Below, piece by piece: positions 1,000 to 36,613 of a stretch of DNA of 64,000 nt. A program made the position numbers and the translations under genes. Positions within the stretch are counted from its first letter, which is position 1, and the number at the start of each line of letters is the position of its first letter. The notes below the pieces were generated by a model. The model was not told the DNA's origin. It saw only the letters and a program-made list of their open reading frames with translations, and ran no database searches. Source of the DNA: a phage; the sequence record NC_094493.1; one strand, 5' to 3'.

Positions 1000-1236
1000 T
1001 TAGGTGCGGTCTCCATCCCTACTCTCCTTTTTCTCCTTACGGATATTCTTGTAGTAATCAACTAGGCACATTATTACAATGAAGATAACAATAGGCCAAA
1101 AAGGTGCAGCAGTGATGATGGTGATAAAATCATCAAACTTCACCTTTCGTCTAGCTACTATGCATACACCTGTCAAGAATACCGCTGTTATAACGGCTAT
1201 TACCAGGTAACCTATTAGCACAGCATTTATACTCAT
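1000..1236 (-). CDS. small membrane protein (two predicted TM helices)
   Basis: 78 aa; hydrophobic segments AVLIGYLVIAVITAVFLTGVCIV and ITAAPFWPIVIFIVIMCLV; charged C-tail. Confidence 0.4.
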   Translation of the reverse strand: MSINAVLIGYLVIAVITAVFLTGVCIVARRKVKFDDFITIITAAPFWPIVIFIVIMCLVDYYKNIRKEKKESRDGDRT

Positions 1237-6478: not shown

Positions 6479-6952
6479 CTAGTCTACCTGAACCCAACCG
6501 CCTGATACTTTTTTAAACATTCTTTGGTTATCACTGCCTCGGAACGGTTTCTTGGTTGGTAAATCTTTTACATACTTACCGTCAATGATGATATCAGCCA
6601 GTTTAAGAACATCACTAGAGATATGGTCAAATGTGAACCCAGTATATACAAGAATAGTTTTCTTGTCACCAAATTTTTCCTTAATTTTCTCCATCAGGCT
6701 AATAATATCTGGCTCATTATAGTATGCTAAGGGTTCTCCACCCAGCAGAGAGATACCGCACACAGACGGGTTATCTAAATCTGACAAGATTTTTTGCAAG
6801 TCTTCTTCAGTAAACTCTCTCCCCTTATCTTTTGACCAAAATGCCTGATTAAAGCAACCATGGCAAGCGTGTGGGCACCCAGATACCCATAAGGCAGTTC
6901 TAATACCTGGCCCTTCGGTGTAAGATATTTCTGTGTATCCGGCAATATTCAT
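6479..6952 (-). CDS. nrdG: anaerobic ribonucleotide reductase activating protein
   Basis: 157 aa; radical-SAM CxxxCxxC (GCPHACHGC); downstream of nrdD. Confidence 0.85.
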   Translation of the reverse strand: MNIAGYTEISYTEGPGIRTALWVSGCPHACHGCFNQAFWSKDKGREFTEEDLQKILSDLDNPSVCGISLLGGEPLAYYNEPDIISLMEKIKEKFGDKKTILVYTGFTFDHISSDVLKLADIIIDGKYVKDLPTKKPFRGSDNQRMFKKVSGGWVQVD

Positions 6953-7068
6953 AGATACTCCGCATCACATTTAGGGCAATGCCAAATAAAATCGTCCAGT
7001 GCCTTGCACCAACGAAGATTGCAACGACAACCACACTTGCAAATTTTATAAATACCTGTAGACATACT
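6949..7068 (-). CDS. small Cys-rich protein (putative zinc ribbon) between nrdD and nrdG
   Basis: 38 codons MSTGIYKICKCGCRCNLRWCKALDDFIWHCPKCDAEYL; GGAGG RBS; ATGA overlap with nrdG start. Confidence 0.3.
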   Translation of the reverse strand, partial: SMSTGIYKICKCGCRCNLRWCKALDDFIWHCPKCDAEYL

Positions 7069-7128
7069 GTACCTCCTAGCTCACTGTATGTCAATAATAT
7101 GCCACATCCTTGTGGCTTTTGTCAAGTA

Positions 7129-9252
7129 TCAGCAACCACAACTTCCGTAGTGCTTAACCCGTTCTATAACTTCCGCTTGCTTACCTTTATTGTAAGGACG
7201 GGAGTTTGGACTAGACAGGTACCCGGATACACGTCTGATCACACTGATCGTTCCCTCTTCATGGTTTCCACACTCTGGGCATACGAATCCCTTAGCTGTT
7301 GCACTGAACTCACCAGAGAAACCACACTTAAGACATTTATCCACAGGCTGGTTGATACCAAAATACATAATGTGTTTATATCCGAAATCAACAAGAGCTT
7401 CCAAAGCATCTAAGTTGTTTTTCAGATTTGGTGTCTCTACGTATCCGATGTTGCCACCAGAAGAGATCATAGCAAAACCTTCCTCATACTCCCACTTATC
7501 AAAAGGAGAGCTATTGATCCATACTGGCTGATGGAAACTGTTGGTGAGATATTCATGCTCGTGCTTCAACACTTCAGGATATTCACGATCCAGACAGGTT
7601 GCAGCTTTATAGCATAGACTCTCAGAAGGGGTGCCGTACAAGCTAAACGCTAGTCTACTTTCCTTCTTGTATCGCTCACAAGCATCTCTCATGTGCTGAA
7701 GTATTCCAAGAGCTAAAGCCTTGTCACCCTCCCTGCCCAAAATCTGACAGGTTTCATACACACCAATATACCCAATACTGATGGAAGCGTACCCGTCATA
7801 GAAGAGTTTATCAATACTCTCTTCAGGATCCAGGCGAGCAAGAGCGCCTTCACACCACATGATAGGGTTCTGCCCTGCCTTTGTTCCTTTTAGACGGTTA
7901 ACCCTTACAAGGTGAGCTTCATACGCCAAATCCAGATACTCGTCAAGAACTGCAAAGAAATCAACACCTTCCGTTTTAGCTTTTGCCGCAATCATTGGTA
8001 GGTTAAGGCTAACAACGCCTAAGTTAAATCTGCCAAGGTATTTCTCCTCGCCTGTTTCCAAGTCATTATATTTGCTAAGAAAACTCCGGCAACCCATGCT
8101 CGTTACTTTACCATCTGTCGAGCCTGTCACTTTACGATTTAGTGGAACAGAAACAAAGTCAGGATAAATCCGCTCTGCAGAGCATTCCAGAGCTAATCGT
8201 TTCAAATCATAGTTAGGATCTCCAGGGTTCATGTTGACACCCTCTTCTAGGAAGAACAGCACTTTAGGGAACACAGGTGTGATACGTTCTTCACCAAGAC
8301 CCATTTTGTGGACTTTCAAGTAATTTTTGGTAATCATTCTACCAAAGACCGAGGTATCCAGTCCTAAACTTAATGTGATGAATGGAGTTTGCCCGTTGAC
8401 AGAAGTTAACGTATTGATTTGATAGAGCAAAGTCTGCATGCTGTCAAATACGTCTTTATCTGTCATTTGCATTGCAACAGTCTCAGCATCTGGCAACCAA
8501 TGTTCCTGGCAAAATTTAAGGTTCTTCTCATAGGTCGCTTCAGCATACTGTGCCAGATAATGATCAATATGGCTCATAGTCTGACCCCCATATTGAGCAC
8601 TAGCTACTGCACTAGAGATTTGGCTAAGGATTGTTGTTGCAACCCCTATTGACTTAGGCTTACTGACATGGGCGTTACCAATGTTGAATCCGTTTTCCAA
8701 CATATCTGGATAATTTACCAAACAACAGTTTGTTAACGGACTGATCAAGTAGTCAAGATCATGCACATGGATGAAGCCTCTATTGTGCTCTTCTGAGACA
8801 CGGTCTGGCAGGATCTGTGTTGATGCAAGGTGTTTGCTAAGGATGCCTGCAAGCAGGTCACGATGAGTGTGTACATGATTGGTAGGCTTATTTGCGTTTT
8901 CTTTTGTAAATTCATCACAAGTGCGATCCAAGAAGCCACTAATATCTGCAAGCAGTTTTCCACCTGCCTCTCTGTTATTATCTCTTGTCTGCCTATACTG
9001 GATGTATTCTCTGGCTGCACATTTTAAACCCATATCCATAAGAGCGTCTTCAACAAGGATATGGATATTTTTTACAGAGATCGTGCACTGGTCGGTTGGT
9101 AGATTGTTAGCAACAACTTCATTAACCGCGCAGGCGATCCGGTAAGCTTCTTCTTCAGTATGCCCAGACTCAAGTAAGGCGGACTCTGCCGCCTTGATCA
9201 CCTTAATTCCGTTATAGACCTCTTCTCTACCATCCCGTTTTACAACTTTCAC
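7129..9252 (-). CDS. nrdD: anaerobic (class III) ribonucleoside-triphosphate reductase
   Basis: 707 aa; C-terminal glycyl-radical motif RVSGYL and terminal Cys cluster. Confidence 0.9.
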   Translation of the reverse strand: MKVVKRDGREEVYNGIKVIKAAESALLESGHTEEEAYRIACAVNEVVANNLPTDQCTISVKNIHILVEDALMDMGLKCAAREYIQYRQTRDNNREAGGKLLADISGFLDRTCDEFTKENANKPTNHVHTHRDLLAGILSKHLASTQILPDRVSEEHNRGFIHVHDLDYLISPLTNCCLVNYPDMLENGFNIGNAHVSKPKSIGVATTILSQISSAVASAQYGGQTMSHIDHYLAQYAEATYEKNLKFCQEHWLPDAETVAMQMTDKDVFDSMQTLLYQINTLTSVNGQTPFITLSLGLDTSVFGRMITKNYLKVHKMGLGEERITPVFPKVLFFLEEGVNMNPGDPNYDLKRLALECSAERIYPDFVSVPLNRKVTGSTDGKVTSMGCRSFLSKYNDLETGEEKYLGRFNLGVVSLNLPMIAAKAKTEGVDFFAVLDEYLDLAYEAHLVRVNRLKGTKAGQNPIMWCEGALARLDPEESIDKLFYDGYASISIGYIGVYETCQILGREGDKALALGILQHMRDACERYKKESRLAFSLYGTPSESLCYKAATCLDREYPEVLKHEHEYLTNSFHQPVWINSSPFDKWEYEEGFAMISSGGNIGYVETPNLKNNLDALEALVDFGYKHIMYFGINQPVDKCLKCGFSGEFSATAKGFVCPECGNHEEGTISVIRRVSGYLSSPNSRPYNKGKQAEVIERVKHYGSCGC

Positions 9253-21836: not shown

Positions 21837-22126
21837 GACTTTTTAGTCTTTCTTGGAGAGCTTTTTGTTGATCTTTTCCTTTTGTGGTAGATTCCAAGTG
21901 CAGCGTTTTCTTGGGCGCACGTTTTAACAGTTCTCAGACAAGAACTTTCAGCTTTAGGCAGGTTTAACTCCCACCAACCAAGCCAGTAAAGTTCTGATTC
22001 AGACAACTGCTCAGATTCAGCCTTCCGATACAAGGCTTGCATACCTCTGATGATATCGTCCAGAGGTGTATCGAATACAAAAGCTGTCTTATCGAATTTC
22101 TCTTTTACAGGTTTCTTAGCCATCAA
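21833..22126 (-). CDS. hypothetical protein with basic C-tail
   Basis: 97 aa; C-terminal KRKRSTKSSPRKTKKS. Confidence 0.35.
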   Translation of the reverse strand: MMAKKPVKEKFDKTAFVFDTPLDDIIRGMQALYRKAESEQLSESELYWLGWWELNLPKAESSCLRTVKTCAQENAALGIYHKRKRSTKSSPRKTKKS

Positions 22127-22580
22127 GGTAACCCTCTATCCACGAAAAGTCAGTCTTCCATTCTGGAACTTTACTAAGCTCACGCCACTCTGCAAAGCAG
22201 TCTCGGTAATAGGCCTCTGCCATACCCTTGGTGATCTTATTCACCTTAGCTAACTGACTAACTGCCTGAGCATACTTTCCACGGATATTTGCTAACCCAG
22301 GATGCACCGATGTGTGACAATCTGGGCACAACGCTATCAGTCCGACAAGCCGGATCACTCCCTCTTCGAAAGTGTAAAGTTCATGACACTCCACTGGGTG
22401 TTTGCTGCCTTTACCGCCGCACACCTCACAGGTGTAGTTGGCTTCTCTATAGCACTTCTTGCGGATCTTATCCCACTCACTCTTCTTCACAGCGTTTCGG
22501 AGGTTATTATACCAAGCTGTTTCTGGGATCAGTTGCACAATAAGCCTGCGTTCAGACTTCATTAAACGTCCGTCTTCCAC
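22116..22580 (-). CDS. HNH/His-Me finger nuclease-like protein
   Basis: 154 aa; CEVCGG...HPVECHE...LCPDCHTSVH pattern. Confidence 0.45.
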   Translation of the reverse strand: MEDGRLMKSERRLIVQLIPETAWYNNLRNAVKKSEWDKIRKKCYREANYTCEVCGGKGSKHPVECHELYTFEEGVIRLVGLIALCPDCHTSVHPGLANIRGKYAQAVSQLAKVNKITKGMAEAYYRDCFAEWRELSKVPEWKTDFSWIEGYLDG

Positions 22581-22589
22581 GTATTCTCC

Positions 22590-22796
22590 TCACTCAAAGA
22601 AATGGGTGCGAGGACAAGATCCAGCCTCGCCTTGTTTCACAAGCTCGTAGAGCTCACCTTGACTTGTCTCATAAAGGCAAATACGTTTACCATTGTCCCG
22701 ATATACATCGACAAGATACGCTGTTTCACCTGCAAACACGACACCACAGGCCAGACATGCTGCCATGAACAAAATTGCCAACAGAAAGTCTTTCAT
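22590..22796 (-). CDS. small lipoprotein
   Basis: 68 aa; signal peptide MKDFLLAILFMAACLACGVVFAG with lipobox-like Cys; directly downstream of endolysin. Confidence 0.5.
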   Translation of the reverse strand: MKDFLLAILFMAACLACGVVFAGETAYLVDVYRDNGKRICLYETSQGELYELVKQGEAGSCPRTHFFE

Positions 22797-22859
22797 GGTT
22801 AAACCCTCCTAAACATTTTATGAGGTAACAATACCACGTCCGTGTGGTTATGTCAATGA

Positions 22860-23330
22860 TCAATCAAGGACAACACCGCCTGCCTTTTTAAACACCTCGA
22901 TCAACTTCTCAATCTTCTGTTCATGCTGACCATATCCAGCACCAGGCAACGAAGCCCAGCGGGAACGGCATTTATGGATAGCCTCGTGGATACGCCCTTC
23001 GTCAATGTCGGCGAGAGCCTTGCACTCACGGATCAGTTGCAACGCAATCTTGTCCTGACTGGCAGGGCCAAAATCTGGCAATCCTAACTGTTCCATGTAG
23101 TGTTTAGCAAACTTCTCCAAAACCTGGTAACGCCCAGCAGCGGAGGAGGTAAGTTTAGCATTTAGCTTAACGTAAACACCGGGATGCTTGCTGTAATCGC
23201 TGAACAGCTTGCCTCCGACTATGACATCGTATCCCCGATCCTTGGTAGGTTGTCTACCATTATCTGTGCCTTCCGAATATGCGATCATATCCAAGAAAGC
23301 CTTTCGTTGAACATTTTTATCAAGTTTCAT
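22860..23330 (-). CDS. endolysin, lambda R-like lytic transglycosylase
   Basis: 156 aa, near-colinear with lambda R including catalytic AYSEGTDNGRQ and C-terminal WASLPGAGYGQ. Confidence 0.9.
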   Translation of the reverse strand: MKLDKNVQRKAFLDMIAYSEGTDNGRQPTKDRGYDVIVGGKLFSDYSKHPGVYVKLNAKLTSSAAGRYQVLEKFAKHYMEQLGLPDFGPASQDKIALQLIRECKALADIDEGRIHEAIHKCRSRWASLPGAGYGQHEQKIEKLIEVFKKAGGVVLD

Positions 23331-32639: not shown

Positions 32640-32736
32640 GCTAGGTAAGCCCTTTGGCAAGGGCGAGGATTTTTAATCCTGAAAATAGACGAGGTAGTCG
32701 TTGAATACATAGGTGGTTCGATTCCATCACCTAGCA
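32640..32736 (+). tRNA. atypical tRNA-like gene (possible tRNA-Lys TTT variant, about 97 nt)
   Basis: acceptor gctaggt/acctagc, D-arm gccc...gggc, T-arm ggtgg-ttcgatt-ccatc; anticodon arm aggatttttaatcct ambiguous; about 30-nt extra arm; no CCA. Confidence 0.45.
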
Positions 32737-32743
32737 CCTTTTT

Positions 32744-33404: not shown

Positions 33405-33803
33405 ATGATTTCAGTTTTAACATGGCTGAGTAGGTATAGAGGGATCATAAAAGGTTTAGTTTTTGCAGCTGCGATAGGTACAGCTTATCTTGGAGCCGTG
33501 TATTGGTTTAACTCTAAGCTTAATGATGCCTACCAAGAAGGTGTGTCAGCAACAGAGTTAAAGTGGGAACGGATCCTTGATCAGCAACAAAAGCAGGCCG
33601 ACAAAATTAAAATGGGCCACGCAGAGGAGGTTAAAAACCTTGAAAAATCCCTTTCTGACCTGCAGGATAAATTAAATATGGCTGAGAAGGCAGGTAAAGA
33701 AAAGCAGATTATTTACCTCCAATCACCTGAGGGTAAGAAGTCAACACTCCCTGATCAGCTTATAGATATTTATAATGAGAGTATTAATCAGGAGGGTCGA
33801 TGA
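33405..33803 (+). CDS. i-spanin (Rz-like)
   Basis: 132 aa; N-terminal TM helix IIKGLVFAAAIGTAYLGAVYWF then charged coiled-coil region; 4-nt overlap with lipoprotein gene. Confidence 0.5.
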   Translation: MISVLTWLSRYRGIIKGLVFAAAIGTAYLGAVYWFNSKLNDAYQEGVSATELKWERILDQQQKQADKIKMGHAEEVKNLEKSLSDLQDKLNMAEKAGKEKQIIYLQSPEGKKSTLPDQLIDIYNESINQEGR

Positions 33804-34087
33804 GAGTTGCTGCACTGTTTATTGTGTGCTTGTTATTGTGTGGGTGTGCAACCAGCGTTGAGAGAGAATACAAGATTGACCCTCCAGATGTAGGAAGGTT
33901 GATTGTTAAACCCCCGGAAGGTGCCATGAAACCACCTGCTAAAGCTATACCTTTAAAGAAAGGTGCGCCAGATGCGGTGAATTCTGGCATTATGAGGGAT
34001 AATAATCTGTCTTGTAGCAATGATAGAGCTAAATTGATCATTTTGCAAGACTATATTAGAACACTGTTTCCAAAGGAGAGAGGTTAA
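33800..34087 (+). CDS. o-spanin (Rz1-like lipoprotein)
   Basis: 95 aa; signal peptide with lipobox LLLCGCAT, Pro-rich mature part. Confidence 0.55.
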   Translation: MRVAALFIVCLLLCGCATSVEREYKIDPPDVGRLIVKPPEGAMKPPAKAIPLKKGAPDAVNSGIMRDNNLSCSNDRAKLIILQDYIRTLFPKERG

Positions 34088-34830
34088 TGTCTAAGATTTA
34101 CGGACCGTGTTCTGAAAAGCAGAAGATGATCCTAGAAAACGATGCAGATATTTTGGTAATCGGCGGTGCCGCAGGGTCTGGCAAGTCGTTCCTCTTGCAG
34201 TTGATGCCGCTTAAAATTATTGATGACCCCCACAGCTCTGTGGTTATGTTCCGAAGAACAACCCCACAGTTGGAAGGTGAGGGTGGACTATGGCCTAAAG
34301 CAGTAGCTATTTATAGTGATCTGCCTGAAAACATTAAGCCAAAGTTCAGAGAGAAGGATCATAAGTTCATTTTTCCACGGTTTGATCCGAACACTGGCAA
34401 GTGGGATAGGAGCAAAAAGGGAGCTGTTGTAAAATACTGCCACATGGAGTATGTACAAGATAAGCTTAACCATCAAGGGCTTGAGTACACCATGGTTTGC
34501 TTCGATGAGGGAACGCAGTTCGAATGGGAGCAGATAGACTATCTGATGTCTCGTCTGCGATCTCAGTCAAAGTATCCATCAAGAATGGTTATCAGCTGTA
34601 ACCCAGATTCAGAACACATGCTTGCCAAACTGGTTAGATGGTGGTTGGACGATGAAGGGTATCCAGATCCGGAGAAATGCGGTAAGAAAAGATATTTTAT
34701 CCGACGCGACGGTGAATTTATCTGGGGAGACTCTAAAGAAGAGTTGATAGAGAAATACACCACGGTTAACGGACTGGGTGTGGAGATCAAGCCAAGACCG
34801 TTGTCATTCTCGTTTATAGGCGCAACCATT
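34087..34830 (+). CDS. terminase large subunit, exon 1 (ATPase domain)
   Basis: Walker A LVIGGAAGSGKSF, Walker B MVCFDEGTQ; proposed 5' splice site after T34829/34830, in-frame TGA at 34834 lies in intron. Confidence 0.8.
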
Positions 34831-35830
34831 AAATGATAGTGGCTTCGTGCAGAAATGCACGTCGAATAACTTCGTTAATTGCTGGAAAATCCGATTGCTA
34901 AACGGACAATCAGCAGCTATAATTACCCTTCCGAACCTGTAGTAGGGAGATGTTTGAAATGAAAAATTTAGGCTTTTTAGGCTACAATCATTATTGTGCT
35001 ACATACGATGGCAGAATTTACAGTCTGTATTCTAATAAATTCCTCCATCCTAATGTGCAGAAAAAGACTGGCTATGCTATGGTAACTTTGTGCGAGGACG
35101 GTAAAAAGTTCCAAGTGCTCGTTCACAGAGTGATTGCTATGACTTTTGTTGATAATGATAATCCCAGCGTGAAAACTCAAGTAAATCACCTTGATGGCAA
35201 TAAGTTGAATAACGCCGCATGGAACCTTGAGTGGACAACACCTGAGGAAAACACACATCATGCTCATGAAATGGGACTTAAAAAGGACTATGTCAATAAA
35301 TACAGGTCCCTAGATGATGCCACTGCTCTTGAAATATGTAGACTGTTAGAGCAAGGTGCAAGGGTAAAAGACATTTGTGAAATGTTTGGTGTCAATCAAC
35401 CACTTGTAAGTGGTATAAAGAATGGCTCAGTATACCCAGATATTTCTAAAGAGTTTAACTTTAGAAAAGTGCCAACCTCTAATAGGATAAGTGAGCACAA
35501 GATAATAGGTATCTGCGAGGATCTTAGTGATAGGGTTTTGTGTGTAAATAAAATAGCTAAGAAGTGGGGCGTAAGTTTTAGTGTTGTTAAAGGAATAAAA
35601 GACCGTAAGACTTACACCTATATTTCAAACAATTACGATTGGTAATGTAGTTCAACGACTATCCCGAGAGGGAGTAGGGCGCAAGCTTATGGCGCTCGAA
35701 AAGCGAAGCACCCTGAGATGGGTGGTGATATAGTCTACTCTGCATGGTAACATGCAGCGGCACGTAATGGTGCGGAGGGTGGTGTTGCGACCACCTTTGA
35801 ATATAAGGATTCGATAATCCTGTCTGCTTG
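34831..35830 (+). mobile_element. group I intron with embedded HNH homing endonuclease gene
   Basis: ordered core elements P aattgctggaaaa (about 34877), Q aatcagcagc (about 34908), R gttcaacgacta (about 35649), S gatatagtc (about 35726); GACTA/TAGTC form P7; P9 hairpins downstream; boundaries +/-3 nt. Confidence 0.8.
34959..35645 (+). CDS. HNH homing endonuclease (intron-encoded)
   Basis: 228 aa from second ATG (RBS GGGAGA); HNH motif VNHLDGNKLNNAAWNLEWTTPEENTHH; ORF sits between Q and R. Confidence 0.85.
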   Translation: MKNLGFLGYNHYCATYDGRIYSLYSNKFLHPNVQKKTGYAMVTLCEDGKKFQVLVHRVIAMTFVDNDNPSVKTQVNHLDGNKLNNAAWNLEWTTPEENTHHAHEMGLKKDYVNKYRSLDDATALEICRLLEQGARVKDICEMFGVNQPLVSGIKNGSVYPDISKEFNFRKVPTSNRISEHKIIGICEDLSDRVLCVNKIAKKWGVSFSVVKGIKDRKTYTYISNNYDW

Positions 35831-36613
35831 AGAGACAACCCAGAATACCTTGCTTTCCTCGAAGGTCTACCAGAGCTGGAAAAAGCTCAGCTTCTCCATG
35901 GTAACTGGTTTGCAAAGCCTGAGGGTGCAAACTATTTTCAAAGATCTTTCCTTCGTGATGCCGATAGAGTACCTCTTGGGTCAGTATCTTGCAGGGCATG
36001 GGATAAGGCAGGAACCGAGAGAACTTCCGGTAATAAATTTCCTGACTTTACTGCCAGTATTAAGGTAAGTAAAGATAGCGACGGCTTTTATTACCTGTCC
36101 GGTGATTATTGTCCTGAGAACGTGGATGACGGGAGGTATTCCACAGGTCTGGAAGGCAAGTTCTGTAAAAAGGCTGGTGAACGAGATGTGATCATCAGGA
36201 AACAGGCGCAGTTCGATGGTGATGATTGCATAATCGTCTTCTCTGTGGACCCAGGGCAGGCAGGTAAGAGTGAGTTCTTAACCTCCTCCAGATCCTTGCT
36301 TGCCGAAGGGTTCAGGGTTGAAGAAGACCCAATGCCTTCCAACAAGTCTAAACTGACAAGGTTCTCACCTTTTGCCAATCTTGCCCAACAAGGAATGGTG
36401 AGGATTGTAAAATCCAGTTTCCATCCTGATACTCTGGAAGCATTTCTGACTGAACTTGAAAAATTCAACGGGGAAAGATCAACATTTAACAGAAAAGACG
36501 ACTGGGCCGACTGTGTAGCTTCTGCGATTAATTTCCTAGAGAAAGAGGAGGTAGCACTTCCTTGTGTGATTCCATCAATCTCATCACCTTCTATGTTCAA
36601 GCGTTTTATCTAA
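35831..36613 (+). CDS. terminase large subunit, exon 2 (nuclease domain)
   Basis: frame open without start/RBS; LLHGNW, VDPGQAGKSE and KDDWADCV motifs of terminase RNase H-like nuclease. Confidence 0.8.
   Translation, partial: RDNPEYLAFLEGLPELEKAQLLHGNWFAKPEGANYFQRSFLRDADRVPLGSVSCRAWDKAGTERTSGNKFPDFTASIKVSKDSDGFYYLSGDYCPENVDDGRYSTGLEGKFCKKAGERDVIIRKQAQFDGDDCIIVFSVDPGQAGKSEFLTSSRSLLAEGFRVEEDPMPSNKSKLTRFSPFANLAQQGMVRIVKSSFHPDTLEAFLTELEKFNGERSTFNRKDDWADCVASAINFLEKEEVALPCVIPSISSPSMFKRFI

Follow-up and report, generated by a model that had tools for sequence, protein, structure and literature searches.

In the 64,000-nt stretch of phage DNA analysed here (sequence record NC_094493.1; referred to below as the window), the lysis genes probably follow a dispersed, T4-like layout, which would comprise a soluble endolysin, separate spanins, a distant putative holin and, directly after the endolysin gene, a 68-aa periplasmic protein that is most probably not a lysis protein. 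Since this dispersed layout has been published for rV5 (PMC3606486) and was restated for LL12, for CB7 (PMC7344957) and in a census of spanins (PMC6139136), the arrangement is the ordinary T4-style one, here in an rV5-like coliphage, and there is nothing new in it. The 68-aa product is best described as a Sec-exported periplasmic peptide of ~46 aa that is cleaved by signal peptidase I (SPase I) and carries one probable disulfide, and it belongs to the family of gp90 of rV5.

Results

The 3-kb stretch around the endolysin and the 68-aa ORF is 100% identical to Escherichia phage Mangalyan and shares 95–99.9% identity with over 100 further genomes of Vequintavirus (rV5-like phages), and the full window matches Mangalyan with 94–98% identity and a few indels. 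Judged by sequence, the window phage is a Vequintavirus, i.e. an rV5-like virulent myovirus, and what has been published on rV5-like phages is directly applicable to it because of this near-identity. An earlier note on this DNA had listed an endolysin gene, a 68-aa ORF and a spanin pair, and all of these ORFs are present where it had placed them. Its description of the layout is largely correct as well, but its label of "lipoprotein" for the 68-aa product and the analogy to Llp that it drew from it do not hold.

The endolysin gene (22860–23330, minus strand) encodes a protein of 156 aa, a homologue of rV5 gp89. A phmmer search against the PDB matched it to lambda lysozyme (1AM7, E=3.4e-56; 3D3D was also matched), it falls into PHROG 90 ("endolysin", E=3e-56), and its counterpart in the GenBank record of Mangalyan is annotated as endolysin. 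The description of the protein as near-colinear with lambda R is borne out by a gap-free, full-length alignment to 1AM7, in which residues 4–154 lie on residues 3–153 with 93 of 151 positions identical (62%). Within this alignment AYSEGT faces AWSEGT of lambda, so that the Glu of the SEGT motif, which we take to be the catalytic residue of lambda-type endolysins, is retained, and the product is predicted to be a lytic transglycosylase acting on murein. The identification was made via the PDB and PHROG and not via Pfam, where the endolysin, the 68-aa ORF and the spanins gave zero matches at E<=0.01. With the N-terminus MKLDKNVQRKAF and no hydrophobic window of at least 1.6 in the TM scan of the 156-aa ORF, the endolysin is predicted to be a soluble, cytoplasmic enzyme that has neither a signal nor a SAR domain. 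According to the lambda paradigm, a soluble endolysin depends on a hole-forming holin for its export, and the endolysin would therefore require such a holin in order to reach the murein.

The spanin genes are located on the plus strand, immediately upstream of the intron-split gene for the large terminase. The first of them (33405–33803) encodes an i-spanin of 132 aa that belongs to PHROG 4297 (Rz-like spanin, E=1.5e-49) and consists of an N-terminal TMD (residues 14–32 in the TM scan) and a periplasmic coiled-coil domain. The second (33800–34087), the start of which overlaps the stop of the i-spanin gene (ATGA), encodes an o-spanin of 95 aa belonging to PHROG 1267 (Rz-like spanin, E=1.8e-22), with the lipobox LLCGC16, Cys16 as the lipobox Cys, a +2 residue other than Asp, and a short, Pro-rich mature part with PPD/KPP/KPP motifs. 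The counterparts of both are annotated as I-spanin and O-spanin in the GenBank record of Mangalyan. The classic pair beside the terminase that the earlier note had described at 33405–34087 is thus recognisable by PHROG family, GenBank annotation, TMD and lipobox, and its sequence features are those of a genuine two-component i-/o-spanin pair of the "separated" architecture, with a predicted role in the disruption of the outer membrane. In line with this, the spanin census counts the "rv5" family among the separated spanins (PMC6139136), and the position beside TerL has already been published for rV5, PVP-SE1 and CB7 (CB7 paper, PMC7344957). The claim that the 68-aa protein is not the o-spanin likewise stands.

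The TM scan, which included out-of-frame ORFs, found no small ORF with two or three TMDs in the several kb around the endolysin and around the spanins, and the intergenic gaps, at 142, 63 and 9 bp, are too short to hide a holin gene. Scan and gap sizes hence agree that no holin adjoins either locus. The statement that there is "no obvious holin" is valid for this immediate neighbourhood but not for the window as a whole, since the holin proposed for rV5, gp129, has an identical counterpart within it (1000–1236, minus strand). This also agrees with the earlier suggestion that the holin may be elsewhere and places endolysin, spanins and holin candidate at three loci, as expected if the lysis functions are scattered. 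Kropinski et al. (2013) regarded gp89 of rV5 as the lysin, found no holin homologue, and proposed as holin the 78-aa protein gp129, "separated as in T4", which was the only rV5 protein with two TMDs by both TMHMM and Phobius (PMC3606486; see also its Table S3).

The ORF at 1000–1236 shares 100% identity with the product that phage V5 encodes at 94058–94291 of NC_011041. Its 78-aa product has TMDs at about residues 3–27 and 37–59, of which the second is invariant, and a charged C-terminal tail rich in Lys and Arg (DYYKNIRKEKKESRDGDRT); small size, two TMDs and a highly charged C-terminus are holin-like features resembling those of class II. The loop between the TMDs (ARRKVKFDD) is, however, basic and fits poorly to the N-in/C-in topology of class II holins. 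The protein showed no homology to a holin family, its single family match being PHROG 10061 (function not assigned), while Pfam and NCBIfam gave nothing significant and PADLOC nothing meaningful. The family is confined to Vequintavirus, no homologue was found beside an endolysin in other phages, and there is no similarity to the two-TMD protein 4MG_114 of Seunavirus. The gene lies 21.6 kb downstream of the endolysin gene and is not linked to it, although the two share a strand and a proposed transcription unit (82–163). The late-promoter motif of rV5, TGGTAAAATA, occurs more often in the structural module than expected (18 matches against 5.9), and no match was found upstream of the endolysin, gp129 or spanin genes.

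The 68-aa ORF (22590–22796, minus strand) is a homologue of rV5 gp90 and 100% identical to the phage V5 product. It belongs to PHROG 4641 (function not assigned, E=4e-28), and tblastn finds homologues in 195 phage records. The 63-bp gap that separates its start from the stop of the endolysin gene contains a predicted sigma70-type promoter (TTGACA-17-TATTGT; 22828–22856, minus strand) with an upstream TG, followed by the Shine-Dalgarno sequence AGGAGG. The same site before gp90 is listed as the sigma70-type promoter P090 in Table S4 of the rV5 paper (PMC3606486), the sole difference being a -10 hexamer of TATTTT instead of TATTGT. In 4MG, KB57, SSE121 and Mydo, the homologues of the 68-aa protein are only ~36% identical, and yet TTGACA-17/18-TATCAT is found at the same distance, ~30 nt before the ATG. 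As the region as a whole shows no excess of sigma70-like hexamers (5 found, 6.4 expected), the promoter call rests on the intergenic position and the conservation across genera.

In all Vequintavirus genomes the 68-aa ORF adjoins the endolysin gene on the same strand. In Seunavirus and Mydovirus, no endolysin but a 296-aa Band_7/SPFH lipoprotein is encoded upstream of the homologue, and neither the window nor Mangalyan contains a counterpart of this Band_7 gene. Directly downstream of the 68-aa ORF lies the gene for an HNH endonuclease (22116–22580, minus strand; PHROG 5200, E=4.5e-72), which is a syntenic neighbour and not a lysis gene, and the order small ORF, HNH endonuclease, exonuclease is retained in 4MG, KB57, SSE121 and Mydo. 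The 68-aa gene therefore does not appear to be coupled to the endolysin, which is its neighbour only in Vequintavirus, as it has a conserved promoter of its own and another upstream gene in other genera. Judged by its synteny and predicted promoter, it is throughout the subfamily a conserved gene of the early/DNA-metabolism region with its own promoter.

Leader and mature part of the family were compared across 120 homologues. A site compatible with the -3/-1 rule of SPase I (such as AFA↓TVN, VFA↓GE or SAHA↓SQ) is found at the aligned position in all 120, a Lys or Arg within the first eight residues in 117, and exactly two Cys in the mature part again in all 120. At a mean pairwise identity of 0.32, the leader is less conserved than the mature part (0.62), which holds all of the invariant or near-invariant residues (T25, L28, D30, Y32, C40, Y42, G47, G59, C61 and P62), and the median uncharged run of the leaders is 12 residues. 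Classical Sec leaders, ending for example in SSPAFA↓TVN or SAHA↓SQ, are seen in the homologues of Seunavirus, Mydovirus and Serratia phages. For the allele in the window, the predicted signal peptide covers residues 1–22 and the predicted cleavage between A22 and G23 (VFA↓GE) would yield a mature peptide of ~45–46 aa with the invariant C40 and C61 and an AGSCP motif. An AF2 model of the precursor, built from the family alignment (pLDDT 80), shows an N-terminal helix corresponding to the leader, followed by a four-stranded beta meander. Foldseek searches with this model against the PDB and BFVD gave no significant match to an annotated protein but only small beta-barrels of a generic kind or phage proteins that are themselves uncharacterised, and PADLOC, NCBIfam, Pfam and PDB fold searches (the latter at E<=0.001) gave no meaningful family.

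The reading of the 68-aa product as a lipoprotein was rejected on grounds of conservation, because a Cys ahead of the conserved mature domain is absent in 93 of the 120 homologues and the SPase I-type site is universal; a loose lipobox match is present in eight. Alleles of the same genus that are 63–74% identical are among those that lack the lipobox, as P0006–P0010 have no leader Cys and P0005 has FLFLC with a Leu at -1, which is not a lipobox. The earlier label is nevertheless understandable, given that the window allele carries FMAAC14, a near match when tested against the pattern [LVI][ASTVI][GAS]C, with a Met at -3 and a Cys just outside the usual range of 15–35. The second leader Cys (CLAC17) does not fit a lipobox. 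This allele also has an unusually long hydrophobic stretch of 20 residues (F4–G23), and retention as a signal anchor or lipidation may occur in this particular allele.

The family extends beyond phages into the chromosomes of Yersinia and Serratia, and one of its members bears the UniRef name "Secreted protein". In both genera the homologue is the immediate neighbour of the integrase gene in an integrative element that has inserted adjacent to rsmI/lpoA (matches to PF00590, TP_methylase/RsmI_C, and PF04348, LppC), which is a typical cargo position. It is preceded by other small proteins with Sec leaders, and genes for a resolvase, a VapE-like primase or restriction-modification are found on these elements.

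Discussion

From our point of view, lysis and envelope functions of this phage are probably organised as follows. The lambda R-type endolysin would be produced as part of a long DNA-metabolism transcription unit, the separated i-/o-spanin pair from just upstream of the terminase gene, and the holin from a third place apart from both, for which the 78-aa protein is the only published candidate. The 68-aa gene would be transcribed early and independently from its sigma70 promoter, and its precursor would be exported by the Sec pathway and cleaved by SPase I at about A22/G23, so that a beta-meander peptide of ~46 aa with a disulfide bond would be set free in the periplasm.

As to the function of this peptide, an accessory role at the envelope, such as superinfection exclusion, appears the most likely one, although we put it forward only tentatively; it is suggested by analogy with Sp and Imm of T4 and by several features taken together, namely the early promoter, the predicted export to the periplasm, the conservation within a lineage of virulent phages and the presence of homologues among the cargo of islands. 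The earlier proposal of "another envelope factor" hence named the most reasonable class of function, but for what is predicted to be a secreted periplasmic mini-protein and not a lipoprotein. One could speculate further that the gp90 family (PHROG 4641) constitutes a so far undescribed group of early, Sec-secreted, disulfide-bonded periplasmic mini-proteins of ~45 aa, which act as superinfection-exclusion or anti-phage envelope factors and are found both in virulent Vequintavirinae, where their sigma70 promoter is conserved, and in islands or satellites of Yersinia and Serratia that are linked to an integrase. If this were true, the peptides could, for example, block the delivery of genomes across the periplasm.

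The position of the 68-aa gene directly after the endolysin gene in every Vequintavirus genome would be explained if its product were a component of the lysis machinery, either a holin with a single TMD or a periplasmic antiholin or timing regulator comparable to RI of T4. The hydrophobic segment of the window allele, 20 residues rich in Ala, Gly and Cys, the presence of rIIA and rIIB homologues in these phages and the fact that no confirmed holin is known for them all are in favour of such a role. We nevertheless consider it unlikely and have rejected the holin and antiholin readings, since conservation is lowest in the hydrophobic segment, which in most homologues is a short leader of the cleavable type, since the gene has an early-type promoter of its own, and since the linkage to the endolysin is lost in other genera. 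Moreover, the family also occurs in integrative elements that are not lytic, and the mature part is acidic, soluble and lacks a charged cytoplasmic tail. The 68-aa ORF is thus most probably not a lysis gene. Even less probable, in our estimate, is a receptor-blocking lipoprotein of the outer membrane comparable to T5 Llp or Cor. For this, one could cite that the gene is predicted to be early and its product directed to the envelope, that a few homologues match a loose lipobox, and that FM(A/T)AC14 of the window allele and its closest relatives satisfies a PROSITE-type lipobox residue pattern. However, most homologues have no leader Cys at all, alleles of the same genus lack the Cys or have Leu at -1, and the SPase I site is conserved throughout. 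Cleavage at Cys14 would in addition give a mature N-terminus that is very hydrophobic (CLACGVVFAG), and neither PHROG nor Pfam links the protein to the Llp or Cor families. Compared to both of these alternatives, a secreted periplasmic mini-protein accounts better for the conserved features, and we suggest that the gene be annotated as encoding a secreted protein and not a lipoprotein, a "membrane protein" or a lysis protein. The gp90 family represents a small and well-defined target for screens of phage proteins that are made early and active in the periplasm.

The identity of the holin is a different matter. While the gp129-type ORF is a putative holin, it is quite conceivable that the true one is another membrane protein, for instance gp31 of rV5 (CPT_029 of Mangalyan) or one of the ~15 other proteins with a TMD. 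The former is a protein of 104 aa with a single TMD, is encoded outside the window in the late tail-fibre cluster, with the late-type promoter P030 listed nearby in rV5, and occupies a position similar to that of t of T4, which also follows the fibre genes. In favour of such an alternative, the basic loop of gp129 conflicts with a class II topology, many other small TMD proteins are encoded in the genome, and the CPT annotators, whose speciality is lysis genes, kept the gp129 homologue as a hypothetical protein and wrote that they could not identify the holin. On the other hand, the agreement of TMHMM and Phobius on two TMDs singles out gp129 among the rV5 proteins, its charged tail is typical of holins, and none of the other candidates matches a holin family either. 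The holin calls of the KP12 paper (PMC9902359) were of no use for this question, and the genome-wide knock-down dataset for EdH4, an rV5-like phage, is limited to the MCP and rII genes as targets. The gp129-type ORF in the window offers a cheap and direct test for the Vequintavirus holin, the identity of which is of practical value, given the wide use of phages of this genus in cocktails for therapy and biocontrol.

With respect to known systems, the window agrees with rV5 in genes and gene order (gp89 as lysin, gp129 as putative holin, and gp66/gp67 next to TerL), with nothing substantively different, and its endolysin/gp90 region is 100% identical to that of Mangalyan. In the rV5 paper (PMC3606486) gp90 carries no annotation, and gp66/gp67 were identified as spanins only in later papers. 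Compared to lambda R (1AM7, 3D3D), the endolysin is alike in length, catalytic Glu and solubility and shares 62% identity without gaps, but R is part of the S-R-Rz/Rz1 cassette, whereas the endolysin described here stands alone.

The 68-aa product resembles T5 Llp and Cor in being small and in its predicted early expression and targeting to the envelope. The analogy to a receptor-blocking lipoprotein of the Llp type, however, fails on the defining feature, as Llp and Cor are lipoproteins with a conserved lipobox, whereas the 68-aa family has no conserved lipobox Cys and a conserved SPase I site instead. Sp (Spackle, gp61.3) and Imm of T4 are early, envelope-located superinfection-exclusion proteins. 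The 68-aa product is like them in its small size, its predicted early expression from a sigma70 promoter, its predicted export to the envelope and its conservation in a virulent group, but no similarity to them in sequence or fold was found (beta-meander AF2 model; PDB and BFVD).

The lysis proteins of the window have no homology to the T holin or the E lysozyme of T4, the endolysin being of the lambda R type. The T holin has one TMD and 218 aa, compared to two TMDs and 78 aa in the holin candidate described here. In its overall layout, T4 is nevertheless the closest parallel outside the rV5-like phages: endolysin, holin and spanins are likewise encoded at separate loci (e, t and pseT.3/pseT.2), the spanins are of the "separated" type too, and e is located among early and middle genes, much as the endolysin gene described here is embedded among genes of nucleotide metabolism.

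Results and Discussion

Three membrane-protein ORFs are clustered on the minus strand of the window, at 1000-1236, 767-886 and 137-598. The first encodes a 78-aa protein with two transmembrane domains (TMDs), the putative holin gp129 of rV5. The second (39 aa, one TMD) overlaps the ORFs on either side; it is gp131 in rV5 and is left without annotation in the close relative Mangalyan. The product of the third is 153 aa long, has its TMD at the C-terminal end, and was identified in rV5 proteomics as a virion structural protein.

With regard to murein hydrolases, a SleB-like "cell wall hydrolase" of 166 aa with an N-terminal Sec signal adjoins rIIA in Mangalyan (OR449013 2083-2583, outside the window), and represents a second murein hydrolase, predicted to be exported. 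A holin candidate with two TMDs overlaps the counterpart of this hydrolase gene in the Certrevirus CB7, whereas such an overlapping two-TMD ORF is absent here. The endolysin itself (22860-23330, minus strand) is a clear homologue of lambda R and matches no family at E<=0.01 in current Pfam-A; for the rV5 lysin, PF00959 was cited (Kropinski 2013; PMC3606486). Annotation pipelines that use Pfam only could miss this lambda R-type endolysin.

Another holin-like protein is encoded just upstream of the homologue of gp90, a predicted Sec-secreted periplasmic mini-protein, in Seunavirus and Mydovirus. Two genes are found at this location (4MG_114 and 4MG_116, at 1684-1875 and 2032-2922 of the 4MG locus, L002). 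The first encodes the holin-like protein, which has 63 aa, two TMDs and a basic C-tail, and the second a 296-aa Band_7/SPFH lipoprotein with a true lipobox, LTGC. Neither gene is present in Vequintavirus, and the 63-aa protein is unrelated to gp129 when the two are compared. In Seunavirus and Mydovirus, the conserved promoter that precedes the gp90 homologue coincides in part with an inverted repeat, which is imperfect, GGCCCGGTGAT...ATCATCGGGTC (L002 2950-2985; equivalents in the KB57, SSE121 and Mydo loci, L003, L004 and L005). This repeat could serve either as an operator or as a terminator for the Band_7 gene that lies upstream.

Homologues of gp90 also occur in Yersinia and Serratia chromosomes (L009 5198-6198 and L013 5680-6198), where they are directly adjoined by an integrase and represent cargo of integrative elements. 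The insertion site adjoins genes whose products match PF00590/RsmI_C and PF04348 (LppC), i.e. rsmI/lpoA. The gp90 homologue is preceded by genes for one or two further small Sec-secreted proteins (80/81 aa, 137 aa); together, these genes may form an accessory module of "secreted mini-proteins".

Within the tRNA cluster of the window (order Arg, Tyr, Ser, ?, Thr, Met, Pro), ARAGORN reported a tRNA-like gene of 99 nt (32640-32738, plus strand) with a four-base anticodon (atcc) and without an identity call. It is annotated as tRNA-Lys in Mangalyan and could be a tRNA that contains an intron or is aberrant.

Among the sequence-search matches were about 19 GenBank records (MG0656xx; "Campylobacter phage C15, A12a, D1 ...") labelled as Campylobacter jejuni phages, which share 96-97% identity with E. 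coli Vequintavirus genomes. Their host labels look doubtful.

Compared to Mangalyan (L001 2419-6594), several kb are missing or rearranged in the window at 6590-8392. The region affected is that of the anaerobic ribonucleotide reductase, and in Mangalyan it is itself split by an HNH endonuclease. The difference between the two sequences represents indel variation driven by mobile endonucleases. The large terminase gene of the window (34087-36613, plus strand) is split into pieces, between which an HNH/homing-endonuclease ORF resides (34950-35645), the same pattern as was described for rV5 and LL12, where TerL is intron-split.
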